Shown one piece after another: positions 1,978 to 41,918 of a DNA stretch of 64,000 nucleotides (positions are counted from its first letter, which is position 1; every line of letters starts with the position of its first letter). A model generated the notes under the pieces. That model was not told the DNA's origin and searched no databases. It worked only from the letters and a program-made list of their open reading frames with translations. The stretch comes from a virus (lineage: Duplodnaviria > Heunggongvirae > Uroviricota > Caudoviricetes). Location of the stretch: IMG/VR virus record IMGVR_UViG_2513237361_000012, positions 1 through 64,000 of that record. One strand, 5' to 3'. The position numbers were made by a program, and so were the translations under genes.

Positions 1978-4900
1978 TTACTCAATGCGCATGAACAGAC
2001 ACACATATCCGGTATCTCCACTTGATGTGGTCGACCTGCTCCCTGACAGAGCCTGATAGCGCCCTGGAAATGCTCCATGACGTGGGTCCGCTGCGCAGAA
2101 TTGCGGCGTTGAGACATAATTAGAAGCCTCACTCGCTTTGCAGGTGACAACCAGTGCTCCAAGCCGTGAGCCGGGAACAATATCGCCAAGCCCTATTTTT
2201 TTCTCTTTGTCATCTGCACTGCTCCCCCTGTAAACAGCAAGAATCGGCACACCCACTGCAGGATATTTGTAATATGAGTGCGTGCCGTTGCCCGCCGTCC
2301 TGGACAGCAGGAACGCCAGCGAATCGCCGTCGTAAATAATGGGGCTTACTGTTGCATTCCAGTTGTTTCCACTCCAGCGGTAAGTCAGGCGATGAATACT
2401 GTGCTCACCTTCGTAATACTGGTTAAAACACAGCAGTGTTTTGAATTTACGCGTTGTGTCCGATTCATCGTTATCAAAGGGCGACCACATCACATCAATG
2501 ATGCCGTTAAATTTCGTGGTGCCCGCCAGCAGCGTGGAAGAGTCCGCAATACTGACCGCATAACGCCCCGGCGTGGCCTCTTTCAGCCATTCAGCAAAAT
2601 CGGCCTGTCCGGTAAATGTCAGGGCATCGGTGCTGGTAAATGCCTGACCGAATCCATACATGCCGGACAGCGCCAGCCTGCCTGGTGTGCGGTCGCGGAT
2701 ATCGCTCTGGGGCTCCATCGTAGCAGCCGCTTTCAGCTCAAGCTCCGTGCGCATGGCTTCAGGCGTGTCCAGTGCCAGTAATGCGCGGGCTTTTTCTGAC
2801 AGTTGCGCCAGTAAAATCCGGCCCTCTTCACTGAAATAAGGCAGCGTGTTTTCTTCCGGTATTATCTGGCTGACAGCCGTTAACACGTCATTAAGCGGCT
2901 GTTTACCCGCCAGCGCCTTAGTGACCGTCGTCGCAAAATTAGGGTCGTTGCCCAGCGCCGCTGCCAGTTCGTTCAGCGTATCCAGGGCTTCCGGGGACGA
3001 GTCAACCAGTGCGGCAAGCAGTTTGCGGACAAACTCCGCATTGGCTATTTCATTACCTGCTGCGTCATCTGGCGGGGTTGGTGTTGTCGGTGCTCCGGTC
3101 AGTGCCGGGCTTTTCAGGGGCGCGCGTGCTTCAATCTGTGCAATGAGTGAAGCCTCATCAACCTTCAGGTTTTCCCAGCCAACCAGATAACCACCACCTG
3201 ATGCCACCGCGCAACGGTTATAATAAATATGACCATTAACACCGTAATAAATAATTATCTTATAGGCATACTCATCATTCGGGCTGGTTTTAGGTTGTGG
3301 CCAGATAATTTCAATAACACCGTTTGTCTGTATGCCAGGTACCACCACATTTGTGTCCGCAAATACGGTATAACGACCGGGCTTTGCTGTTTTTACCCAC
3401 CTGAGAAAATCAGTCCCTGATTTAAATTCAATTCTGTCGCTACTGGAAAATATTTTCCCGAAACCGAACATGCCAGGAATCGCCAGTCGGCCTTCGGTGC
3501 GGTCATAAATATTCTCCTGTGCATCCTTTTGTGCTGCATTGCCAAGTTGTGGCGTCAGATTCGTCCAGGTGACCGGGGCGGAGATATTATCGCCACGAAC
3601 GGTCATGAGTATCCGTCCGTCTTTTCCAAAAAACAGAACCAGCTTTGTTGCTGTCTGGCTGGTTTTATCGCCCCAGCCATTATCCAGCCAGATAATTTCT
3701 GTTATTCCGGTGGTTTCTTCCGTTCGCGTGGAAAAGGTGTAATACCGCCCCGGGTGCAGGTTGTGCGCAGTTCTGGCTACAGTCGCCATATCGCTGGCAA
3801 TAATTGAACGCGCTCCGGCGTCCGTCATTCCGTAACCATACGCACCGGGAAGCGCAACACGGCCTTCCGTGCTGTCGTAAAGGTCTGTCTGAATATCCCT
3901 TACCGCTGCGCTTTTCAGCTCAAGCTCATTGCGCATGGCTTCCACTGTGGCCTGTGCCAGCAGTGACCGGGCTTTTTCTGACAGCGGAGACAGTGAAGCA
4001 TTCCCGTCCTGATTAAAGCACAGAAGGTTATCTGCCCGCTCTTCCAGATTGCTGATAGCTGTCAGCACGTCGTTCAGCGGTTGTTTGCCTGCCAGCGCGT
4101 TCATGATTGTTGTCGCAAACTCCGGGTCATTGCCCAGCGCCGCTGCCAGCTCGTTCAGTGTGTCCAGGGCTTCCGGTGACGAGTCAACCAGTGCAGCAAG
4201 CAGTTTGCGGACAAAAGCCGCATTCGCTGTTTCCAGACCGGCAGCATCATCCGGTGGTGTTGGTGTGGTTGGCGTGCCGGTGAACGCCGGGCTGTCCAGT
4301 GGCGCTTTTGTTTTCGTCTCGTCCATGACGGTTTTGACAGCCTTTGGTGTGGCGGCCAGTTCTTCGCTGTCGTTGTCCGTATCACTACAGAGTTGCACCA
4401 GACCTTTTTCTGTCGTGGAAGCATTGCTTCCCTTCAGGTCATCAACTATCCGTTGTGCCTCGTCCCTGTGCTGTTTCGCGCTCTGCTCGCTTTTTGCTGC
4501 CGCTTCGGCGCTGGCTTTTGCCTCGCCGGTCAGCGTTGCTGCTTCACCGAGTTTATCGACCGCTTTCTGGACTATCTTATCGGCATCTTTGACCGCCTGT
4601 TCTGCCCGGGCGGCATTCTGGTTTGTTTCAGAGGCCAGCTCTTCAGCTTTCTGGACATTACTCGCAATTTCTTCTGCATCCTGCCGTATTTCCCCTGCGA
4701 GGGTTTCTGTATCCTGGCGGGCCTGTTCAGCAGCGTCCGCATGCTCTCTGGCTTTTTCTGCGCTTTGCTGCGCCTGTTGCGCCAGTTCCTCGAATTTCTT
4801 CAGGGCTTCCGGGCGCAGGTCAATATCGGTTGCCCCCAGAAAATCATTCAGCGAACCGTCTGTCGAATCTTCATAAACGCGAATGACACCGATTTCTGAA

Positions 4901-19776: not shown

Positions 19777-20540
19777 TTACTCACTGTCAAAACGGGCCTG
19801 TTTTGTCGCCAGCTGGCGCGCCAGCTCCTGCTCACGGTTTATGCCGGGATTGTAGTTCCAGCCCGGATCAATCCCTTCCGGCACATCTTCCTCTTCGCCC
19901 GTGCGTTTGTTCACCCAGCGGACAGTTCTGATTTCCGGCGCTTCGGTGTGAATGGTGCCCTGTGCCGCCAGTTGCGCATATTCACCACGGCTGACCTGAC
20001 GGATGGTGCATTTGCAGCCCCAGCCGTTAGGGGCGAAATGCGTCTGCCAGAACGGGTGGTCTACAGGCAGACACAGACGCGCCCATTTCACATGCTCCGC
20101 CCGGTGGTCGCGGGATGGCCCCAGCTCGTAAATCAGATACGGCATGGCCCGCTTTGTCCGTTGAATGCGTTCCCACTGGCCCGCCGCGCGGGCGGTGCGC
20201 ATGTTGGTATCGTAAATCGTGCGGAGGCGGCGGTCGCTGCCCAGCTGTACGGTTCGGGTTTCGCCCGTCAGCGGATCATCCATCTCCTGTACGCCCCACC
20301 ATCCGCGTTTTATCAGCAGCGGTTGCAGCGCCTCCCGGAACTCGCTGAACGTCTGCCCGCTTTGCAGGGCGTCTTCCACAAGGGCTTTCACATCCGACAA
20401 CAAATCCAGTTGCAGCATTTTTGCCACGGTGAAGCTGTTCCGGTGTTCTTCCCGCCATACATCCCGGTAATCAAAACCGGGGCGCAGCTTCTTCGCCTTC
20501 AGCCACGCCAGCGCCTCTTTCGGGATGAGAGTTTCACGCA
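19777..20540 (-). CDS. Head morphogenesis protein, Mu F-like
   Basis: Downstream of portal gene, Mu F-like; start taken at MRETLIP. Confidence 0.65.
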
Positions 20541-22104
20541 TGACCGGTGTCCCCCAGCGCACGCGCCTTAAAGCACACCTCCGCCAGTTGCAGGGCAAAG
20601 TCGTCCGCGTTCAGCGTTTCCTGAAGCTCAGGCAGGCGTTTCAGAAAGTCATCAAAACTGTCGCATTCCTGCGCCAGTGTCAGCACCGGGTTCGTGAACG
20701 CCTCGCCGGTTTTCTGCCAGTCACGCAGGGCATCATCCACCATCTGTGCCAGTTCATCGGGGTGTTCCCGGTTCAGGGCGACGCGCTCGCGGTTCATCGC
20801 CACATCACCTGACATTCCGGCAGACACCGGATGCAGAACATCAGCCCCGTCGTCCGGTTCAGCCAGGCCGAACCGGTCCCGCAGCTCCGATTCCTGAACC
20901 CGCATCCCCCGGTCAATCAGCGGCACCAGAGCATCTGTCAGCGCCTTCAGATCTTCCGCTTCACTGATACGCAGAACAACACGGGGGTAGTGTTCCTGTG
21001 GCCCGTAGTTGGCCTCGATGTAGGGCCGCACCAGATATTCATTCAGCGTGTTAGCCAGCTGCCGCGCGTCCCAGCGCACAATGTCCATGCGCACCTGATT
21101 GTGCACGTCCGCCTGTGAACGCGAACTGCCGTTATCCGTGGTCATGGTCTGCCCCAGCACAGCCTTACTGATTTGCGCATCACACCATTCCGCCATTTCA
21201 CGGAACAGTGCGCCGCCGTTATTCCGGCTGGCGGTTTCCTTCATTTCCAGTTGCATGGACTGCGGAATGGCACACCCGGCATCCGAGGCAATGGAAGCAA
21301 TCGCATCAATCAGCACGCGGATTTGCTCCTCCGTGGCGTTGGGGCCGTATTTCCCCACCGTGACCGGAATGCCGAATTTTTCCGCAAATGCCCACCAGTC
21401 GCGCACGGTAAAGGATTTCAGCATGTACATCACCGCCACCAGACGGGCCAGACCGTTACGCAGCGGCAGACCGGATTTCAGACGCGGCTGGTGAACAATG
21501 AATTTTCCCGGTGTCAGCGGTACGCCATCCACCGGTTCATCGTCAGTCAGCAGGCGGAACTGGCGCAGCGTGGGTTTTTCGGCTTTCAGAAAACGGGGAT
21601 CAACCCACTCATAATCACGGGGCACCCAGTGGTTGTTGCGGGTGTTCCACAAAATTTCACAGACCGCCACGCCTTTTCCCAGCCCGTCGAGCAGATCAAA
21701 CATCAGCTCAGGGATTTGCGGTGCCTCCATCAGTGCACGGATGGCGTCCGCCAGTTGCACGTCAGCATCGTCATCACTGGCGGCCACCACCACCGGTTCG
21801 ATACCCGCCACCGTCAGCTTGCGGGTGCGCAGTACCGAGGCGTAATGCAAATCGCGTTCTTCCATCTCTTCAGCAAGGTAAAAAAATCACGCGTGATGCC
21901 GTCAGTAGCATTGCGCAGAATGCCTGCCAGCCTGCCGGGGTTCAGCCCGGAGGCGACGCTGATACCCGGCGAGGCCGAACGCACACCGGCATGACGCGGA
22001 CGGGCCTGTGCTTCGTTGAGCGCCTCTTTTTTCAGCGTGTCTTCCTCACCGGTTGCCGGGTTCAGCAGACGGCGAACGGCCCCGGCCAGTTGTTTCAGGT
22101 TCAC
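20534..22104 (-). CDS. Portal protein gene, apparently split by a 1-nt frameshift
   Basis: N-terminal 96-aa ORF (21814-22104) and 443-aa ORF (20534-21865) are in different frames; one extra T in the T7 run (A7 on plus strand, 21880-21886) would fuse them. Confidence 0.7.
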
Positions 22105-23636
22105 AGTAAACCTCCCTCATTTTTCAGGCCGCGCGTCAGCTTCATCTGGCGGCGCGCGTTGCGTTCTTCCGGTTTCGCCGGGCGGTTCAGGCGGTGCAAC
22201 TCGTAACGGTGGCAGTCATCCTTGCTGGCAAGGAAGCCCAGGAAAATGGCCACAGCGGCGTCGCCGTGACGTTTGTGACCGTCGCTGCCTTTGGTTCGTG
22301 AATCATCAATGCCGGGAACGCCACGCAGTAACTGAATGGCTCCGAGGTCATTGATCACGTCTTCATGCTTCGGAAGGATCAGCTCATCATCTTCAAACGC
22401 CGCACGGAAACGGGGCATGTTTTCGCGGTAAAACGCCACGGACAGCATCACCTGTTCCACTTCATCGCCGTACCGCTCTGCCGCCTGTTCTGCCAGATAC
22501 TGACCATTCCCCCGCGCATCCATTTTGATGCCGTCACGGCGGGGCAGACGATCGCAAAGCCAGAACAGCACCTGCTCCTGCTGTTTAAACGGCACATTGC
22601 CAAGCTCAACCAGGAACGGCACCTCGCGGGTGGTGTCATCGTTCACCGTCACCGGGGCCAGTACGGTCAGGTCACCCGAACGCGCAAAGTCTTCCCCCAG
22701 ACAGTGGCGCAGGTTCTTCGGGAGTTTTTCCAGTTCAGGGCGCACCACTGTTTCCAGCCATTCCCGGATATCTGCCCGGCGCTGGCTTTCCGTCAGTGCG
22801 TTAAATTCCGGTGTGCCGGTAAAGCGCAACACTTTCCCGGTGCCACGGGCCGCACGTTCACGCAGTGAGCGGGGGATATACGTGCCGCCGCCGTTTTTCG
22901 GGACGCAGTAATACTCCTCCAGCGCGTCTTCGCGGGTGGCGGTATTTCGCAGCAGGCCTTCTTTCCATTCCGCCTCGGCTTCCGGTGACCACACCATGCC
23001 GCGCACCTGACAGATACGTCGGTACAGCCCGTCATTGCAGGCGTCGTCCAGCGTGATGGTGTGAATGCTGTAATCTTTTTTGCCCGCGCGGCTTTCCTGA
23101 ATAAGCTGATTAAACAGGTTGTCCACGCCGTCATGGGTGGAAATAAGGCGAATTTTGCCGCCCCATGTTTTCAGCGGCAGCACCGCCTTCAGCAGCTCGT
23201 CCAGTTTTTCATGGAACGCGGCCTCGTCGATGGTGACATTCCCCTGCATCCCGCGAATGTTGCTCGGGTTGCTGGACAGTGCCTTGACCTTAAAACCGCT
23301 GGCGAAGTACACGACGAACGTCAGAATGTCCTTGTCTTCGTCGGTGATCACTTCCTCGCAGATTTCTTCCGCTGCCGCATTAAACGCTTTCGCCCACATC
23401 GCCACGGCGTCGATAAATTCGCGGGCCATCTCCTTATTCGAACCGATATAAAAGTGATCGCGCCCGCCGTCTTCCTTCTTCAGCGATGCCGTCAGTGCCG
23501 CATCTGCCGCCTCCGCCCAGGTTAAACCGGTACGGCGGGATTTCTCGGCGATTTTCAGGTCGGCATCATCCGCCACCCAGCGTTTCTGATACGGCAGCAG
23601 AACATCATATTCACTGAACGTGTCCATTTGTGTCAT
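22101..23636 (-). CDS. Terminase large subunit
   Basis: 511 aa, terminase-like, upstream of portal. Confidence 0.8.
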   Translation of the reverse strand: MTQMDTFSEYDVLLPYQKRWVADDADLKIAEKSRRTGLTWAEAADAALTASLKKEDGGRDHFYIGSNKEMAREFIDAVAMWAKAFNAAAEEICEEVITDEDKDILTFVVYFASGFKVKALSSNPSNIRGMQGNVTIDEAAFHEKLDELLKAVLPLKTWGGKIRLISTHDGVDNLFNQLIQESRAGKKDYSIHTITLDDACNDGLYRRICQVRGMVWSPEAEAEWKEGLLRNTATREDALEEYYCVPKNGGGTYIPRSLRERAARGTGKVLRFTGTPEFNALTESQRRADIREWLETVVRPELEKLPKNLRHCLGEDFARSGDLTVLAPVTVNDDTTREVPFLVELGNVPFKQQEQVLFWLCDRLPRRDGIKMDARGNGQYLAEQAAERYGDEVEQVMLSVAFYRENMPRFRAAFEDDELILPKHEDVINDLGAIQLLRGVPGIDDSRTKGSDGHKRHGDAAVAIFLGFLASKDDCHRYELHRLNRPAKPEERNARRQMKLTRGLKNEGGLL

Positions 23637-24235
23637 GCGCTAATCCCCAGAATTTCACGTTTGATGGTGTCAGCCGCACCGCCCGACAGACCGCCCGTTC
23701 TGACCAGCTCTTCGGTTTTCTCTGCCATCTCCTGCGCAAACGCATCGCGGATCGCTTTCTCGCGTTTATGGCTGGTCATGGCTGCCACTTCCAGACGCTG
23801 GGCAACCAGCGCCAGTTGGCCCAGCGCCTTCGGTGCAACAGGTTTGTCGTCTTCTGCCATCGACATGGACGTTTCAAAGGCCAGCGTTTTTACAAACTCC
23901 ATCAGCAGCTTGCCGACGTCTGATGTTGGCGCGGAACCCAGCTTTGCCGCCCAGACTTCGGCCATTTCGCGGGAGGCACGGATTTTTGCCCCGACTTTTT
24001 CCATGCGGATGGCGTAGCGGTTTAAGCCCGTCCGGCTTAACTGCATCTCTTCCGGCAGGTTATGTTCGTCAATCAGGGCATTGATGGCTTCGCGGATTTC
24101 TTCCTGCGTGTGCCGCTTTTCCCGCAGCATCTGATGCAACTGCTCCCGGATGCTGTCCGGGAGTAAATCCACTTTGGAAAGACGGCCACGGGTGGGGCGT
24201 TGTTCATTTTCCATGTGTGCGCTCCTGTTGCTCAC
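23633..24235 (-). CDS. Terminase small subunit-like protein
   Basis: 200 aa immediately upstream of large terminase. Confidence 0.6.
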   Translation of the reverse strand: MSNRSAHMENEQRPTRGRLSKVDLLPDSIREQLHQMLREKRHTQEEIREAINALIDEHNLPEEMQLSRTGLNRYAIRMEKVGAKIRASREMAEVWAAKLGSAPTSDVGKLLMEFVKTLAFETSMSMAEDDKPVAPKALGQLALVAQRLEVAAMTSHKREKAIRDAFAQEMAEKTEELVRTGGLSGGAADTIKREILGISA

Positions 24236-24350
24236 TACGCTGTAAACTTTCGTATGCAGATTTCAGTGCGCCGTTCTGGATTTCCCGCCATGTCGGTTGT
24301 GCGCCAGACGGCGGAGTTCATCACGGGACGCTTTACTTATCGGATTCTTT

Positions 24351-24650
24351 TTACGGTTCACGACGGCCCCCGTCTTCAGTTCCCGGTGTTTTCAGACCGG
24401 CGTATATTTCTTCGCGAACGGAGCGGATATCCTTACCCAGCAGCTTCCACAGCCGCGCACATGCCGGTGATGAACGCAGGGCACGTTTCATGGGGGTATC
24501 CGGTGCATCCGGGTTCCAGGGCTTTCCGGTCTGTTGTTCATATGCACGGGCGATGGCGTTTTTCTCAATATCCGCGAGCACAAGACAGTACGCCAGCTGC
24601 CGCACGACGGCCCGTTCTCCGCGACTTAACGGCTTCAGTTTTCGGGCCAT
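24351..24650 (-). CDS. Hypothetical protein
   Basis: 99-aa ORF between lysis-region genes and terminase. Confidence 0.35.
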   Translation of the reverse strand: MARKLKPLSRGERAVVRQLAYCLVLADIEKNAIARAYEQQTGKPWNPDAPDTPMKRALRSSPACARLWKLLGKDIRSVREEIYAGLKTPGTEDGGRREP

Positions 24651-24652
24651 GC

Positions 24653-24946
24653 TCAGTCCCTCGCACGGGGTTTTTTAACGCCCGGAACGCTGGACAGGCC
24701 GTTTGCCACATCCTCGCCGCTGCCGGTGATTTCAGCCACGTAACAGCCGCCCACATCAGACAGACGAACCAGCCCCTGCTCGCGCAGCCATGCAAGCTGG
24801 GTGCGCACCACATCACGGGATACCTTATGACCGTAGGCCTGAAGGCAGGTCTGCAACACGGATTCATTCGCGCTGTCGCCACAATCCAGCAGGGAACGCA
24901 GCAACACCAGACGACGGTCTTCAGTGAGGATCTCTTTCATCGCCAT
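24653..24946 (-). CDS. Hypothetical protein
   Basis: 97-aa ORF, tightly packed with neighbours. Confidence 0.4.
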   Translation of the reverse strand: MAMKEILTEDRRLVLLRSLLDCGDSANESVLQTCLQAYGHKVSRDVVRTQLAWLREQGLVRLSDVGGCYVAEITGSGEDVANGLSSVPGVKKPRARD

Positions 24947-25251
24947 TAATTTTTTTCCTTTAACTCGTTCTCTAATAACAAATCGCTGATGCGGGATACC
25001 TGGCGGATGGATGGCCCCAGCTCTTTGATTTCTCCCCGCAGGTTGCTGATATCCAGTTGCAGGCGGTGGAACTCATCACGATCAGGTAGCTGATGTACCT
25101 GGCTTTCCATCACCGACACGCGGGAACGCAGCAAATCAAACTCTTCGCGCTTGACGTAGGTCTTTGCCAGAATCAACTGAAGCAGGTTTATTCCTGTCAT
25201 CAGCAATGCCCACAGAATGGGCCAGTTGGCTCTGATCATTTCCCAGGACAC
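24946..25251 (-). CDS. Hypothetical membrane protein
   Basis: 101 aa with N-terminal hydrophobic helix. Confidence 0.4.
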   Translation of the reverse strand: MSWEMIRANWPILWALLMTGINLLQLILAKTYVKREEFDLLRSRVSVMESQVHQLPDRDEFHRLQLDISNLRGEIKELGPSIRQVSRISDLLLENELKEKN

Positions 25252-25463
25252 GTTTTCCTCCTGCGTTCCCGCATCTGCTGACAGTCAATACAGGTCACCA
25301 CATCCGGCAGCGCCGCAAGGCGCTGTGCCGGAATAACGTTCCCGCAGTCATTGCAGAAGCCCCGGCTGTGGGGCGTTTCTTTTGTCCGTGTCTGCCAGGC
25401 TTTAACGACGCTCTGACGCTCGTTCAGAACCACTTCACTGATGCGATCGATTTCGTCGGTCAT
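25236..25463 (-). CDS. TraR/DksA-type zinc-finger protein
   Basis: C-terminal CxxC...CxxC (CNDCGNVIP...CIDCQ) pattern, 75 aa. Confidence 0.55.
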   Translation of the reverse strand: MTDEIDRISEVVLNERQSVVKAWQTRTKETPHSRGFCNDCGNVIPAQRLAALPDVVTCIDCQQMRERRRKTCPGK

Positions 25464-26071
25464 TTCGGCCCCGCAGACATTTTGTGACGGCTTGATTTGC
25501 TGTAACGGGCAAAGCCGTCAAGGGTTCTTACACCGAGATAGCCCAGCGCCGGGGTAAGCAACATCAGCGTGATATCCCAGTCCGGTGATGGCATATGCAG
25601 CGTGATACCTCTGGCACCGGCAATGGCTCCGGCAATCTGGCCGCAGGAGAGCAACAGCACATAGGCCAGACTGCTGTAACAGGAAAGGCGGGCCAGCAGC
25701 GGGCGTGTCTGGCGCACATAGCTGTCCGTGGCGTTGTCACCATTGCGGATGGTTTCCTGCTGTTCGTGGTGTGCGGCCTGCTGGTCAGCCAGCACTAGCT
25801 TCTGCCGTTCCACCTCCAGCTGTTGCAACTGAATTTTCAGGGTTTCCATCTGCATCAGTTGCTCCGGTGACAGCATCACCAGTTTTTGTTCCAGAATGCG
25901 TTGCTGTTCAGCCACCGGCAGGCTTTCCCGGACACTTTCCACCATACCGGCCACCGAGTCAGCGGCGGCAGATGTGCTGCCACCAAACCAGCGCCCGACG
26001 GAACGAATCAGCCCCGGCCCGGCTTTCAGCAGAACAGAGGCGATGCCTGAAAGGGTTAACGGATCCACGGG
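25460..26071 (-). CDS. Putative lysis-associated membrane protein (start uncertain)
   Basis: Hydrophobic segments at both ends with central coiled coil; downstream of endolysin. Confidence 0.4.
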   Translation of the reverse strand, partial: PVDPLTLSGIASVLLKAGPGLIRSVGRWFGGSTSAAADSVAGMVESVRESLPVAEQQRILEQKLVMLSPEQLMQMETLKIQLQQLEVERQKLVLADQQAAHHEQQETIRNGDNATDSYVRQTRPLLARLSCYSSLAYVLLLSCGQIAGAIAGARGITLHMPSPDWDITLMLLTPALGYLGVRTLDGFARYSKSSRHKMSAGPK

Positions 26072-26466
26072 AAACCTCCATACAGATAACGCTGAAGACA
26101 GAGCAGACCGCCGCAACTGCCACCGCACAGCCAGAACACCGGATGCACCGGTGACATCATCATCAGCGTGCTGAAGACGCAGCAGAAATATCCCAGCGCC
26201 CAGACCACCCATGACCACACGATGATGTGGCGACCAAAAGCCCGGTAACGGACCTCAGGCAGCAGGCGAAATGGCACATTCCCGAGGCTTGCGCTGTATG
26301 AAAACAACACCACCCCGGCAAAGGACAACAACATCAGCACGAACGATCGCCAGCCACATAACATGCTGATGATGAACATGCAGAGTGTCAGTCCGGCCAG
26401 TGGCCACGGCGTTCTCATCAGTCGGGAACAAAGCAGCCAGTCACACAGTTTTAAAATTTTGTTCAT
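26056..26466 (-). CDS. Putative holin-like membrane protein (start uncertain)
   Basis: Multiple predicted transmembrane helices, Cys/Trp-rich, close to endolysin. Confidence 0.4.
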   Translation of the reverse strand: MNKILKLCDWLLCSRLMRTPWPLAGLTLCMFIISMLCGWRSFVLMLLSFAGVVLFSYSASLGNVPFRLLPEVRYRAFGRHIIVWSWVVWALGYFCCVFSTLMMMSPVHPVFWLCGGSCGGLLCLQRYLYGGFPWIR

Positions 26467-26692
26467 TACCTTTTTCCACATTGAATTTTTCCCTGTACTT
26501 CTGGCACTGCCAGAAAATGTCCCGTGTATCCACGGAGTTCCAGCCACGCATGTAGTAGCTGGCGTGTGTGCCATCATGGCCGGTATAGTCCAGCGGTTTC
26601 GGGGGCGGGCCTCCGGCCATGCGGTGCAGAACCTCCTGACGCAGGCGGTCACGCCGCCCGGTTTTCAGTGAGGCATCCCAGCCTTTGCCCAT
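26441..26692 (-). CDS. Hypothetical protein
   Basis: 83-aa ORF directly downstream of endolysin. Confidence 0.35.
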   Translation of the reverse strand: MGKGWDASLKTGRRDRLRQEVLHRMAGGPPPKPLDYTGHDGTHASYYMRGWNSVDTRDIFWQCQKYREKFNVEKGNEQNFKTV

Positions 26693-26693
26693 A

Positions 26694-27290
26694 TCACCCC
26701 CGCGTGGCGGACATGATGCCCAGAGGGGTATCGATGATTTCCAGACAGGCGTCGGTCAGTTTTTCCATGCGGTTAAACCAGCCGTTCAGGTATTTGCCCT
26801 GGGCGGGTTTTGATTTGATGATGTCGGCATAAAAGCGGGAACGACGGACAATGCAGCGGGCCAGCAGCCAGTCCGGGGAGGACAGGCTCACGGCCTTGCG
26901 GGTACGCGGGCCGATGATGCCGTCAGCATCCACATCAGCGGCTTCCTGCAAAATCCTGATGGCTTTTTTAACGCCATGCTGAACCGCCGCATCGAACACA
27001 AACATCGCCACGCCATCAGGCCACTGGTCACATCCGGCAGGCAGCCAGTAATCGCGCCAGTAAATCTGCGCAACCTGTTCGCGGGTTAAATCCTTAATGC
27101 GGGTATCCGGTTTGCCGTCACCGTTGACATCGGTTTTGCCGTCAATCACACCGTCGCGGCGGTCAGAAATGCCGTATTTGGTTTCACCGCCGCTGTCTGT
27201 GGGGTCATTGACATAGCCGCCTTCAATATCAGGACGCAGAATAAAATTCAGCGCATGTTCAAAGGCCGGGGAGAATTTTTGATTTTCCAT
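26694..27290 (-). CDS. Endolysin, GH108-type muramidase with peptidoglycan-binding domain
   Basis: N-terminal EGGYVNDPTDSGGETKYGI motif characteristic of GH108 lysozymes; sits downstream of mor. Confidence 0.7.
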   Translation of the reverse strand: MENQKFSPAFEHALNFILRPDIEGGYVNDPTDSGGETKYGISDRRDGVIDGKTDVNGDGKPDTRIKDLTREQVAQIYWRDYWLPAGCDQWPDGVAMFVFDAAVQHGVKKAIRILQEAADVDADGIIGPRTRKAVSLSSPDWLLARCIVRRSRFYADIIKSKPAQGKYLNGWFNRMEKLTDACLEIIDTPLGIMSATRG

Positions 27291-27342
27291 AAAAGCACCT
27301 GTGAAGCAGATTTAAACGTGGTCTGCTTCATGGTGCCGGAGG

Positions 27343-27372
27343 CATAAAAAAAGCCGGATTTACCGGCTTCAT
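27343..27372 (-). terminator. Rho-independent terminator-like hairpin
   Basis: Same AAGCCGGATTTACCGGCTT hairpin plus T-run as at 19611-19641, directly after mor. Confidence 0.5.
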
Positions 27373-27375
27373 TGA

Positions 27376-27825
27376 TTAAGGGCGTCGTGGCGGACGACGA
27401 ACGGGATGAGGCAGATTCGGGGAGTGGTAAAACAAATCCGGCTGGTATTTATTACGCTCCAGACGTCGCATCCGTTTGATGGCCTTGTAGACAGTTTTAT
27501 ATGTCACTCCGTAACGCTGAACCAGTTCAGGAATATTATGGCCGTTAAAATCACGCCAGATACGCATATCCCGGACAAGATTCTCCAGAATATTCCCCCT
27601 CGGAACATAAACCTGCATCCCGCCGATATGGCGACAAATCGCCACAACCAGCTCAAGGGAATGGGCAGGGTCTGCGCCAATCCGGGCCAGCTCTTTACGC
27701 AGCAGTGCGTTCAGTTCAGAAAGTAACGCCGGATAAGCGGTGTTTTCCTGATAATCATGAAGGTATTCCAGAACGCTGTCGTCCCGGAGGTCTTCGAATA
27801 AATCCTGCTCTTTCATCTGTTTCAT
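27376..27825 (-). CDS. mor: Middle operon regulator Mor-like
   Basis: 149 aa, position after gemA, Mu Mor-like. Confidence 0.65.
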   Translation of the reverse strand: MKQMKEQDLFEDLRDDSVLEYLHDYQENTAYPALLSELNALLRKELARIGADPAHSLELVVAICRHIGGMQVYVPRGNILENLVRDMRIWRDFNGHNIPELVQRYGVTYKTVYKAIKRMRRLERNKYQPDLFYHSPNLPHPVRRPPRRP

Positions 27826-28373
27826 ACAGCAATTCTCCCGCTGTTTCGTGCGCGGGCATATGCACTGGTCATTGCATCATAGCCGCGCAGTTCCCGCCCG
27901 GTTTCGCTCACAGGTAAAGGCACACCATGTCGGACAAAGGCTTCCCGGATGCAGCGCATATGCCACTGTTTGAGCGTTTCGAGCACAACATGCAACGATT
28001 CCCCGTGACACCAGGCCAGCGTGGAAACACCCTGACCACCATTACGTCTGGCCGTCAGGCGTTCAACGTATTTGTCCAGCGCGGCGTCGCTGATATCGGA
28101 GACGAAACCATCAAGAAACATCTGCTGCCAGATTTTATAAATCTTCTCGCGCGGTGTGACATGCTCCTTAAAGCGACGGCGGGGATGTTTTTTCTGCTTC
28201 TTAAAACCGCGCTCTTTCATGGCATCGAGCACCTGTTCCAGTTGTGCGACAGTCAGTTCGCGGCAACTGGTCTTGCCTGTGCACTGCACCAGAAAGGCGC
28301 GGTAAGTGTCATCGTCGAGTTGTAGATCACGACGGGCAACATGAATTAACTTAATAAGCGATGTGCGACTCAT
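27822..28373 (-). CDS. gemA: GemA-like protein (Mu gp16 family)
   Basis: Resembles Mu GemA by recall; start taken at MSRTSLIK, the ORF-track N-terminus being AT-rich extension. Confidence 0.6.
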   Translation of the reverse strand: MSRTSLIKLIHVARRDLQLDDDTYRAFLVQCTGKTSCRELTVAQLEQVLDAMKERGFKKQKKHPRRRFKEHVTPREKIYKIWQQMFLDGFVSDISDAALDKYVERLTARRNGGQGVSTLAWCHGESLHVVLETLKQWHMRCIREAFVRHGVPLPVSETGRELRGYDAMTSAYARARNSGRIAV

Positions 28374-28403
28374 TTTGTCACCTCTCATATTAAGGAATGA
28401 GAT

Positions 28404-28808
28404 ATGAAAATTGATTACGATGAACTGGCAAGAATCCTTGATACTTTCCTGAATGCAGACAGCGCATTTATTACCCTTAAGGATGTTGGAATCGACACAA
28501 CCGACGATGAAGATAAACTGATATTTCATTTATTACTGCTCGTCGAAAATGGTCTTATCGGTAACAGAGAACTGCAAACTGGCACCCCGGAGTGCATCGG
28601 TCTGAAGTTCACCACAACAGGTATTGGCTGGCGAAACGTACCAATAAGGCTGACTCAGGACGGACATGATTTTGCCAATGCATTGCATCAAAAACCTATT
28701 CTTGAACGAATCAAAAAAGAATTTGCCGAAGCCCCGTTTGATGTTGTCAAAGACCTCGGCAAGGGGTTTTTAACTCAGTTATTTAAAAAGAAACTCGGTA
28801 TTGAATAA
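28404..28808 (+). CDS. Hypothetical protein on opposite strand (AT-rich moron)
   Basis: 134-aa ORF with RBS-like AAGGAATGAGAT upstream; lower GC than surroundings; only plus-strand gene in the early operon. Confidence 0.5.
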   Translation: MKIDYDELARILDTFLNADSAFITLKDVGIDTTDDEDKLIFHLLLLVENGLIGNRELQTGTPECIGLKFTTTGIGWRNVPIRLTQDGHDFANALHQKPILERIKKEFAEAPFDVVKDLGKGFLTQLFKKKLGIE

Positions 28809-29081
28809 CTCCTTACTCATTCGCTGTAGCACATCAAGGGCGGCAACTGCCGCCACTTTATCCTGACCGGCAATGATTTTTCGTAATTCCTCAATAATCC
28901 AGGCATGGCTTAATGATTCAGCAATCATCGTGCGTTTTTCTGAAATTAAATTTTCTCTGGCCTGCTCATAGTGCTGGTATACAACATTATCCAGAAAATA
29001 ATTTACATCTTGTTCTGACATGCCACTGGAAATTAAGGTTGCAGCCATTAAATCAGCATCAGTAATCATCTGTATTTTCAT
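28779..29081 (-). CDS. Hypothetical protein (AT-rich moron, convergent with 28404-28808)
   Basis: About 100-aa ORF, low GC, 3' ends of the two genes overlap by about 30 bp. Confidence 0.4.
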   Translation of the reverse strand: MKIQMITDADLMAATLISSGMSEQDVNYFLDNVVYQHYEQARENLISEKRTMIAESLSHAWIIEELRKIIAGQDKVAAVAALDVLQRMSKELFNTEFLFK

Positions 29082-29256
29082 TTCGTAATACCTCTTCGCA
29101 ATAAAAGACTTCATTGGGATAACGTTTTTGTATGCGCTCCATCACCTGCATACATGCCTGCTCTGTGGGCCAGATTTTTTCCGTTACCGGAATGGCATCG
29201 CAGGCATCATTCCCACAAGTGCCAACCAGCAGGACAAAGCCAATTGACTTAATCAT
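29059..29256 (-). CDS. Small putative exported/lipoprotein
   Basis: MIKSIGFVLLVGTCGNDAC: signal-peptide-like N-terminus with Cys, about 65 aa. Confidence 0.4.
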   Translation of the reverse strand: MIKSIGFVLLVGTCGNDACDAIPVTEKIWPTEQACMQVMERIQKRYPNEVFYCEEVLRNENTDDY

Positions 29257-29788
29257 GCTCGCTGATTTCCTGTGTTTCCGCCGGAACCGGTGAATAATCA
29301 AGAATGAGATAGCGCAGGACGTGGTCGGTGATATTCCAGCCACTGGAACCACAAATAAAGCGCCCCAGCCGGATATCGATATACGCCATCACAAAACGGG
29401 GCATCCCCTGTTTGCACATCTCGTCATCCACTTCAGCAACGATGTAAACCGACTCGCAGGTCAGTACGCCTGTCGCAAATTCTTTTGCCAGTGCCGGAAT
29501 GGCATTGCCTTCCAGCCAGGGCAAAGAGCGGCGGAACGCGCACCATTGAGCATCATCAACAGCGGGGTGCTCCGTTGCGTTTCGTCTTACAGGAGGCGTC
29601 GGACGAGGGCGCGGAACGTCATAAAATCCGTTGCATTCAGTGAGAACTCCGGCATCAACCGCATCACGCAGGAAATACACCATTGAGGAAGGTGGCATCT
29701 TCATTTTTTCAGCCAGAACGCCACAGGTCAGACGCCCGTAACCCCGTAGTAATGTGCTGACACCGTTCAGAATTTTTGCATCAATCAT
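29249..29788 (-). CDS. Hypothetical early-region protein
   Basis: 179-aa ORF immediately downstream of gam. Confidence 0.45.
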   Translation of the reverse strand: MIDAKILNGVSTLLRGYGRLTCGVLAEKMKMPPSSMVYFLRDAVDAGVLTECNGFYDVPRPRPTPPVRRNATEHPAVDDAQWCAFRRSLPWLEGNAIPALAKEFATGVLTCESVYIVAEVDDEMCKQGMPRFVMAYIDIRLGRFICGSSGWNITDHVLRYLILDYSPVPAETQEISEHD

Positions 29789-29885
29789 TTTTATTTCTCA
29801 GATATCAGATTCAGGCGCGAGCAATCCCCTGACGCATCGCGCCATAATTAAAAGAAAGTGAATTAATTAAATATTCGTGGTGGTA

Positions 29886-30410
29886 TTAAATACCGGCTTC
29901 CTGTTCAAACGGAATAATAGAAAAATCTTCAATACCTGATTTGACTGTAATTCCGGCAACACCTGCGACCGCTTTCGGTTCCAGTAAAATCGCTTCCTTG
30001 TTGATTTCCTGTTTCGTGCGAATAAAGCGTTGCAGGCCAAGACGCTCCAGCGTTTCCATCACCGCATCCACACCGCGAATACTTACCGATGGTGGGCGCT
30101 GACGCCATGACACATCACCGGTTACCAGGTTTGCCGTCTTCACCTTGCCGCCGTTCGTCAGTTCGTCACGGTTCGCTTCACACCACCCCTGAACGCCTTT
30201 TGAAAGGGTTTCAATACTGGTTTTAAGGGGTGCAATCTGTGAGGCGTATTTCTCCGTAATCTCAGCGATAGCGTCATTCATCTCCGTTTCAAGCCGTGCC
30301 GCTTCGCGTTGCAGGTCACCAATCCGGCGAATATCACATACCACGGCATCGCGGGATTGTGGAACATAAGCCGCTGCGGCGTTCTTGATTCGTTTTGCTG
30401 GTTTAGCCAT
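29886..30410 (-). CDS. gam: Gam host-nuclease inhibitor (Ku-like DNA end binding)
   Basis: 174 aa, near-identical over its length to phage Mu Gam as I recall it. Confidence 0.85.
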   Translation of the reverse strand: MAKPAKRIKNAAAAYVPQSRDAVVCDIRRIGDLQREAARLETEMNDAIAEITEKYASQIAPLKTSIETLSKGVQGWCEANRDELTNGGKVKTANLVTGDVSWRQRPPSVSIRGVDAVMETLERLGLQRFIRTKQEINKEAILLEPKAVAGVAGITVKSGIEDFSIIPFEQEAGI

Positions 30411-30430
30411 ATAAATAAAGCTCCTGTTAA

Positions 30431-30730
30431 TTAATATTCGCTGTATACAATGCTGGATACAGCACGATTGCTTAATTCCATCTTTTGGGCTATCACATGA
30501 ATAGCCACCCCTTCTTTATAAAGTTCACGACACAAATATTTGTCGTGCTCACTGACCCGGTATGCACACAACGATATTCCGTGCCTTCTGGCATGTGCCT
30601 GTAGGGCGGTTGGGGCAACGTTCAGTTTTTTCGCCATTTCCTCGACGGTCATTTTTCCGACACTGGCTTCGATAAATTCCCGGTCTTCGCGTGACCAGCG
30701 TTTACGCTTACACATCATTCCGGTCACCAC
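30431..30730 (-). CDS. Hypothetical small DNA-binding protein
   Basis: 99 aa with helix-turn-helix-like segment. Confidence 0.4.
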   Translation of the reverse strand: MVTGMMCKRKRWSREDREFIEASVGKMTVEEMAKKLNVAPTALQAHARRHGISLCAYRVSEHDKYLCRELYKEGVAIHVIAQKMELSNRAVSSIVYSEY

Positions 30731-41135: not shown

Positions 41136-41327
41136 TTATCGTGAGTTTTTAGTACAGATTTTTTTGGATTTACTAATAGTTCCATCATTGCAAACGAATT
41201 TGCCATCAGAGGTACAGTGAGAAACACCTCCCTTTTTCCCTGAGCAGGGATAATTTCTAGCATAGGTAGCTAGTGGGTTTAATAACAAAGAACATGACAA
41301 AACCACAAAAAATACCTTACCAAGCAT
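41136..41327 (-). CDS. Small Cys-rich exported protein (hypothetical)
   Basis: 63 aa, hydrophobic signal-like N-terminus, 6 Cys; between int and cI. Confidence 0.3.
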
Positions 41328-41342
41328 AATTTCCTCCCGGTA

Positions 41343-41918
41343 CTATTTAACATACTTGACTGTTAAACTTATAATTTTACCAATTATTTCAATGTCTTCT
41401 ATCTTGCATTCGAAGGCTCTGTTTCCACCCTCGACGAAGATTCTTCCACCGGGTAAACGAGTAATGTCACGGATCGTTATTTTGCCATCAATACTTATTA
41501 CCCATTTACCATCACGTATATCATCAAATTCCTTATCACAAATAAATTCAGAATTATTATCTGTGATTACAAAAAGATTCTTGAATGCCGACGGTAGAAA
41601 TTCTCTATCGAAAATATAAAAACCGTCTTCACACAAGGCCCCATCAGATAATACATATTTAGCAACTTCCATAGTATTTGTATTACCTGAAGTTTGCTTT
41701 GAACCATGCCCGGTTGTGAGCCAATTAAGCGAGGCGCCTGTTTCAAGGGCGCACTGGATTACCCATTCTGCTGGGAATGAGTCACGCATGTAGCGTGTGG
41801 CGAGTGTACTTTTAGAGATTCCTAAATGATCGCACAACGCCTGTCGAGTCTTGAATCCATAAGCTTCTACCATGCGCTCTATAGCGCCTCGTCCGCCTTT
41901 CTCCAAATTCATGGTCAC
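41343..41918 (-). CDS. cI: Immunity repressor CI (186 type)
   Basis: 191 aa with N-terminal HTH (QALCDHLGISKSTLATRY); position int-cI-apl-cII. Confidence 0.75.
   Translation of the reverse strand: MTMNLEKGGRGAIERMVEAYGFKTRQALCDHLGISKSTLATRYMRDSFPAEWVIQCALETGASLNWLTTGHGSKQTSGNTNTMEVAKYVLSDGALCEDGFYIFDREFLPSAFKNLFVITDNNSEFICDKEFDDIRDGKWVISIDGKITIRDITRLPGGRIFVEGGNRAFECKIEDIEIIGKIISLTVKYVK

Follow-up and report, generated by a model that had tools for sequence, protein, structure and literature searches.

A reversed DUF2513-family gene upstream of gemA is an optional accessory gene of a Mu-like prophage of Escherichia coli

Results and Discussion

In a Mu-like prophage of E. coli, a 134-aa gene that we assign to the DUF2513 family runs against the early operon directly upstream of gemA, and comparison with E. 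coli prophages of the same type indicates that this gene alone is an optional extra, the pair that it forms with its convergent neighbor not having been inserted as a unit. We regard it as a feature of an ordinary kind, a moron-like accessory gene. As to what the gene does, the explanation that we favor, and to which we give an even chance, is a moron-type lysogeny function exerted in trans by a small DNA-binding protein, rather than a role as one half of a toxin-antitoxin pair. The place that it occupies, on the border between the semi-essential early region and gemA-mor, is a recurrent slot for backwards genes from at least two unrelated families. The slot itself is already known from Mu, in which gp15 is the positional counterpart of the reverse gene.

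Layout and composition of the locus

The window, that is, the whole 64,000-nt stretch of viral DNA analyzed here (IMG/VR record IMGVR_UViG_2513237361_000012, positions 1 to 64,000), holds between 26.7 and 35.0 kb what its sequence identifies as the early and middle genes of an E. coli Mu-like prophage, encoded on the minus strand (Table 1). All neighbors from the transposase A gene through the lysozyme gene lie on this strand, and the reverse gene is the sole plus-strand ORF; its start lies 29 nt from the start codon of gemA, with which it forms a divergent pair, and its 3' end runs into a 100-aa minus-strand gene. The original prediction had described this convergent pair with its coordinates, ribosome-binding site and 30-bp overlap, all of which read from the sequence as described, and had placed B, gam, gemA and mor where we find them, with gam, the gp11-like gene, gemA and mor identified by Pfam and B by sequence. 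Its picture of an otherwise uniformly minus-strand early operon holds for this prophage apart from positions 28404-28808, but Mu and SfMu carry a reverse gene at the same position. The intrinsic terminator after mor is the equivalent of the Mu terminator found there, and an Rfam search of positions 26000-31000 returned just one match, a sub-threshold sroD-like one at this terminator.

The GC content was 41.0% for the plus-strand ORF and 38.0% for the 100-aa minus-strand gene, compared with 53.3% for gemA, 52.4% for the gp11-like gene and 50.8% for positions 20001-40000, a reference that takes in most of the early and middle region of the prophage. Both genes were thus lower in GC than these neighbors, as had been claimed, although some other early genes were also AT-rich, with 43% in the adjacent 65-aa gene and about 44% in both the gp7-like gene and an 84-aa gene.

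Table 1. Positions of the features discussed, given in the coordinates of the window unless a locus label (L) precedes them.
Feature	Position	Strand	Remarks
Transposase A gene	32954-35041	-	
B (MuB-like ORF)	31925-32878	-	assigned by sequence; PF09077 on homologous loci
gam	29886-30410	-	Pfam
gp11-like gene	29249-29788	-	Pfam
65-aa gene, small lipoprotein-like protein	29059-29256	-	PHROG 16556
100-aa PHROG 1988 gene	28779-29081	-	ATG start, upstream GAGG
GC hairpin GGCGGCAACTGCCGCC, weak T tail	28839-28854	+	31 nt past the reverse-gene stop
Convergent 3'-end overlap, 30 bp	28779-28808	both	codons in antiparallel register
134-aa DUF2513/PHROG 585 reverse gene	28404-28808	+	ATG start
Shine-Dalgarno-like AAGGAA	28392-28397	+	7 nt before the reverse-gene ATG, counted by hand
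Indel segment, ~401 bp	28380-28780		reverse gene minus its last 28 nt; from alignments
gemA	27822-28373	-	Pfam GemA, E 2e-33
mor-family activator gene, 149 aa	27376-27825	-	Pfam Mor, E 4e-30
Intrinsic terminator after mor	27350-27370		terminator scans
GH108 lysozyme gene	26694-27290	-	
Bidirectional terminator-like hairpin in a Salmonella Mu-like prophage	L009:3952-3971		also in L023, L116, L019, L113

Evidence that both ORFs are genes

The plus-strand protein matched PHROG 585 over its full length (E 3e-23). Its own score against Pfam DUF2513 (PF10711), 18.7 bits, fell below the gathering score of 29.6, yet all 22 of its aligned relatives matched that model (best E 3e-6), and we therefore assign it, on sequence, to a divergent subfamily of DUF2513/PHROG 585. 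A protein 99% identical to it, which NCBI names DUF2513, is encoded in the same arrangement in E. coli GCA_001616655.1, and relatives at 50-72% identity were found in Salmonella, Enterobacter, Serratia, Edwardsiella, Pantoea and Yersinia. An exhaustive profile search gathered 354 clusters of the family at 50% identity, nearly all of them stand-alone proteins of ~135 aa. Given the PHROG 585 match, a family of this size and pairwise dN/dS values of 0.10-0.23, the ORF is a genuine gene under purifying selection and no chance reading frame. The AAGGAA motif in front of it is kept in the E. coli-type loci L005, L067 and L083. The literature searched yielded no mention of DUF2513, a family whose several hundred clusters come from temperate phages of Enterobacterales and Vibrio.

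The convergent ORF is likewise a genuine gene, as judged from its full-length match to PHROG 1988 (E 2e-40) and a dN/dS of 0.17-0.23. With 40% identity to SfMu gp14, it is a homologue of that gene with the corresponding place in the early operon, of which it is an ordinary forward member. A longer reading of 111 aa starts from 29114, but it aligns with the PHROG only from its residue 12 onward. The AlphaFold2 model of the protein was all-helical and of low confidence (pLDDT 76, pTM 0.36); a fold search with this model gave no match (all E above 3), a result that is meaningless at such a pTM. Searches of Pfam and of PDB sequences gave no match either, and the sole hit among PADLOC and NCBIfam models was a sub-threshold, coiled-coil-like match of this protein to GpsB, which scored 23 bits where the cutoff is 91.

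Presence and absence of the reverse gene

Two E. coli strains with the same prophage type, STEC1575 and FDAARGOS_943, carry PHROG 1988 alleles 92-93% identical to the one in the window that run directly into gemA with no reverse gene. When the loci were aligned, ~401 bp in the window stood against ~6 bp in the two strains, and homology picked up again within the last 28 nt of the reverse gene. Since near-identical alleles of the minus-strand gene abut gemA where the reverse gene is missing, this gene is a resident of the early operon that lies outside the insertion. The idea of an inserted pair, as originally proposed, is therefore retained only for its plus-strand half; the minus-strand gene occurs without any reverse gene in STEC1575 and FDAARGOS_943 and without any DUF2513 gene in SfMu. 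No target-site-like direct repeats flanked the ~401-bp segment, and no transposon ends were found around it. DNA homologues were present in just 5 of 5426 complete E. coli genomes. The comparison with other Mu-like phages that had been proposed as a check on whether these are core early genes showed them to be variable at this position.

In Pectobacterium and Brenneria Mu-like prophages, homologues of the 65-aa PHROG 16556 protein (MIIGFILLVSACG...) are encoded directly next to gemA, which suggests, from gene order, that variable genes were added between the 65-aa gene and gemA.

A recurrent slot for reversed genes upstream of gemA

In RefSeq Mu, gp15 (88 aa) is encoded on the opposite strand immediately upstream of gemA and converges on gp14 with a 62-bp overlap. 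SfMu has a reverse gene at the same site and in the same layout, preceded by the SfMu PHROG 1988 homologue; in its numbering, gp16 is the counterpart of Mu gp15 and gp15 that of Mu gp14. The Mu pair and its SfMu counterparts thus agree with the pair studied here in position, in reverse orientation and in overlap with a forward gene of ~100 aa, but they differ from it in the length of the reverse product (88 aa against 134 aa) and show no sequence or profile similarity for either gene. Homology of DUF2513 to gp15 (PHROG 8747) was ruled out (BLASTP E 1.7, hhalign probability 0.4-2.6%), as was homology of the PHROG 1988 protein to Mu gp14, for which neither BLASTP nor hhalign gave a match.

In the RefSeq entry of D108 (NC_013594), a gap of 376 bp between gene 14 and gemA is left unannotated (L001:2076-2435). 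It holds a 119-aa reverse ORF that is convergent with gene 14 and matches PHROG 38610 (E 8e-83), and this ORF looks like a gene missed in the reference annotation. The D108 ORF and gp15 are related (hhalign probability 89%), whereas hhalign detected no relationship between the D108 ORF and DUF2513.

With purpose-built profiles, we classed 80 IMG/VR Mu-like contigs by what lies upstream of gemA. In this redundant sample, whose counts are not independent events, a reverse ORF was present in 42 of the 80 contigs (DUF2513 in 15, gp15-type in 14, D108-type in 7 and another, unclassified ORF in 6), a PHROG 1988 gene adjoined gemA with no reverse gene in 8, and other forward genes abutted gemA in about 30. 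The gp15-type and D108-type genes all converged on gp14. Mu-like prophages that are more distant, in Pectobacterium, Brenneria, Photorhabdus, Pseudomonas and Kluyvera, had no reverse gene, and a small forward gene abutted gemA. The literature searched on Mu gp15, the gem promoter and strand-specific transcriptomes of Mu yielded nothing on the site before gemA; the slot picture offers a handle on the role of the gp15-type genes through existing Mu genetics.

There is also a second reverse-gene position, between gemA and mor. Two IMG/VR contigs, L148 and L149, carry the whole PHROG 1988 and DUF2513 pair there (~3000-3735). In a Salmonella prophage, the same interval holds a reverse ORF of 134 aa that is unrelated and matches neither PHROG nor Pfam models (L012:2982-3386).

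Linkage of the reverse gene with its convergent partner

Every Mu-like DUF2513 locus examined, at 37-63% identity, had a convergent partner of the PHROG 1988 family, including distant cases in Edwardsiella (E 2e-14), L124 (1.6e-9) and Klebsiella phage Kp4866-3 (3e-6). Among the 15 DUF2513 contigs of the census, the partner was intact in 14 and interrupted in the 15th (L118), where an apparent insertion sequence, presumably IS1-like as its family was recognized by eye from the translation, splits the PHROG 1988 gene and the DUF2513 gene beside it is intact (L118:1500-2100). The 3' ends overlapped at nearly all loci examined, by ~29-39 bp where a PHROG 1988 partner was read, with L139 as the exception; the overlap was 39 bp in the annotated homologous loci L005 and L009 and 30 bp in L008, and ORF-scan coordinates point to overlaps of ~29 bp for L019 and ~53 bp for D108.

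This constant company is an argument for taking the two genes as a functional module, be it a toxin-antitoxin, defense or effector-immunity pair or an antisense-coupled lysogeny/lysis toggle, in which one partner, made in the lysogen, would control or neutralize the other, made from the early operon. The module would also fit the pair between gemA and mor in L148 and L149, which looks as if it had moved as a unit, the near-universal overlap, and the parallel case of the gp15-type and D108-type reverse genes, which always accompany gp14. Even so, we consider it unlikely. PHROG 1988 genes abut gemA alone in alleles 93% identical to the one studied here, the SfMu PHROG 1988 gene precedes a gp14/gp15-type pair and not DUF2513, and DUF2513 genes stand alone in lambdoid prophages and in other phages. 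Because overlapping coding ends are hard for recombination to separate, the overlap alone would keep the two genes linked, and their linkage in Mu-like phages can be explained without a shared function. The toxin-antitoxin or defense pair named in the original prediction has no positive support: Pfam, NCBIfam and PADLOC gave no match to a toxin, antitoxin or defense family, the layout is convergent and not the co-directional, co-transcribed one of protein toxin-antitoxin systems, and each gene is found without the other.

A broader version would extend the idea to the whole gemA-proximal slot, which would then hold interchangeable two-gene convergent modules (PHROG 1988 with DUF2513; gp14 with gp15 or the D108 ORF), each coupling a lysogen-expressed to an early-operon protein through mutually antisense 3' ends as a lysogeny/lysis toggle. 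We think this improbable; if true, it would amount to a prophage-encoded defense that is shut off on induction or to a checkpoint on transcription into gemA-mor.

The reverse gene compared with morons

Outside Mu-like phages, DUF2513 relatives with ~50% identity were found alone, and reversed with respect to all neighbors, in the tail-gene region of Yersinia lambdoid prophages, and another of ~50% identity lies alone and reversed between the Q antiterminator and holin genes of a Serratia symbiotica prophage. More distant relatives (33-41% identity) are co-directional with their neighbors in phages Chlobot and vB_YpM_39, as they are in some IMG/VR contigs. A PHROG 1988 homologue was absent from all of these non-Mu loci (Yersinia, Serratia symbiotica, Chlobot, vB_YpM_39 and the IMG/VR contigs).

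Presence or absence among near-identical phages, AT-richness and orientation against the operon are what the reverse gene has in common with morons of the type described by Hendrix, such as lom and bor of lambda, and in lambdoid prophages close DUF2513 relatives lie at two sites that are classic for morons, the tail region and the Q-holin junction. Its variable presence is clear, and its composition contrasts with that of gemA and the gp11-like gene, though some neighbors are also AT-rich. Morons differ in having their own promoter and terminator, neither of which was recognized here for the reverse gene. The moron reading of the original prediction therefore carries over to the plus-strand gene, which is optional, of contrasting GC and reversed, with relatives that stand alone in lambdoid prophages, although no dedicated promoter or terminator was recognized.

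Predicted fold of the plus-strand protein

The AlphaFold2 model of the plus-strand protein, built on 22 sequences, reached a pLDDT of 90 and a pTM of 0.81. It predicts a winged helix resembling those of MarR, PadR and TubR, with flanking helices of the dimerization type, and a Foldseek search with the model returned MarR-family regulators alone, with weak E-values (9e-3 or above). In fold and size the model is like the MarR, PadR, HxlR and TubR proteins, including the N- and C-terminal helices around the winged helix. A conserved stretch, FHLLLLVENGLI...IRLTQDGHDF, corresponds to the motif xLLxENGLI...IRLTxxG, which we take to resemble the recognition-helix and wing signature of PadR and MarR.

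At the sequence level, membership in the MarR/PadR-type regulators is absent: the MarR, PadR and HxlR Pfam profiles matched none of the 22 members at E up to 1, a PDB sequence search with the plus-strand protein gave no match, and Pfam yields DUF2513 alone. DNA binding is thus suggested by the predicted fold only, and it calls for caution, as the protein is acidic (pI 5.2) and a loop rich in Asp and Glu, ahead of the presumed recognition helix, takes the position expected for the second HTH helix. With this caution, the product would act in trans, most likely as a small, probably dimeric DNA-binding protein, and an accessory regulator or a superinfection-exclusion factor are candidate roles for it.

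Expression signals and the likely time of action

Consensus scans, which are weak tests for promoters and terminators, found no sigma-70-like promoter for the reverse gene within 250 nt upstream at a relaxed threshold (8 of 12 matches) and none on the plus strand across the 1.1 kb of positions 27300-28404. A GC hairpin downstream of the reverse gene (Table 1), which scored as terminator-like, was considered as its dedicated terminator and ruled out: it falls on conserved Ala-Ala-Val-Ala-Ala codons of the forward PHROG 1988 gene, and as loci that lack the reverse gene have it just the same, it is no evidence for such a terminator. The Yersinia DUF2513 copy has a clear terminator-like hairpin past its stop.

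We infer expression in the lysogen from the orientation of the reverse gene and the behavior of the family in other prophages. Because the gene is antisense to the early transcript from Pe, its productive expression would be limited to times of low early transcription, as in the lysogen; once the prophage is induced, it would be silenced by convergent transcription and by full-length antisense RNA. A precedent comes from the Pseudomonas Mu-like phage Fc02, in which the overlapping opposite-strand genes olg1 and gene 10 are alternately expressed in lysogeny and lytic growth and give superinfection exclusion (PMC9936078); it is a precedent for the logic only, the Fc02 genes lying at a different locus (the repressor/ner region) and encoding unrelated proteins. 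If expressed in the lysogen, the DUF2513 protein would be a candidate lysogenic-conversion or exclusion factor, although its practical importance is modest at present.

Small accessory genes of the semi-essential early region of Mu, such as kil and gam, often act on host functions. By analogy, the plus-strand gene might be an anti-defense or host-takeover gene of lytic growth, but we hold this to be very improbable: the one early transcript known runs antisense to the gene and would oppose its expression, and in lambdoid prophages its close relatives likewise point against late operons.

A further possibility is that the reverse unit matters in cis, as a local gate on gemA-mor at which convergent transcription, or binding of the winged-helix protein, blocks leaky or early Pe transcription from reaching mor; the effect would be to stabilize lysogeny or to set the moment at which middle genes take over from early ones. 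Such a gate would account for a slot just upstream of gemA-mor that is found in most Mu-like phages with unrelated proteins in a constant orientation. Low-level transcription from Pe has been reported in Mu lysogens (PMC3820752), and gemA-gemB has been treated as a separate "gem operon" (PMC12407980), and the gate idea draws on both. In Salmonella-, Citrobacter- and Klebsiella-type Mu-like loci, the spacer between the reverse gene and gemA is 70 nt long and contains a strong bidirectional terminator-like hairpin, which on the early strand reads GGCGGTGCTGACACACCGCC and then TCTTTTTTTG and lies ~21 nt before gemA; its presence in the Salmonella- and Citrobacter-type loci also speaks for a gate. 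The 29-nt spacer in the window has no such hairpin. We nevertheless regard the gate as an improbable explanation, in that the reverse protein is under purifying selection and its family is present in lambdoid contexts without gemA, the DUF2513 gene of L148 and L149 lies away from the gemA start, a reverse gene is missing altogether from many Mu-like phages, and no promoter was found to drive the convergent transcription. A trans-acting lysogeny function remains the explanation that we prefer.

At loci of the L009 type, early transcripts would need to read through the hairpin to reach gemA-mor.

Other observations on the region and the family

In some Yersinia prophage contigs, a same-strand ORF of 148 aa precedes the DUF2513 gene (L144:2348-2794). 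Its N-terminus looks like a ribbon-helix-helix of the Arc/MetJ type (MAKEYSPYPFRMPAEIREALD...), and the two genes could form a two-gene regulatory unit.

The GH108 lysozyme gene of the window follows directly after mor and its terminator (26694-27825), with no counterparts of Mu gp18-20 or of the late activator C in between, whereas Mu, D108 and SfMu have gp18-20 counterparts and a separate late activator C between mor and lysozyme. The transcription cascade of this prophage may thus have one Mor/C-type activator fewer, or C may be sited elsewhere.

Just past the repressor end of the prophage (c-like ORF, 35421-36008), positions 38800-41800 are 100% identical to E. coli NCTC8623, which makes E. 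coli the host. Since the matching NCTC8623 segment is annotated with a phage integrase, a DUF4917 protein and a CI repressor, a second prophage-like element adjoins the Mu-like prophage.
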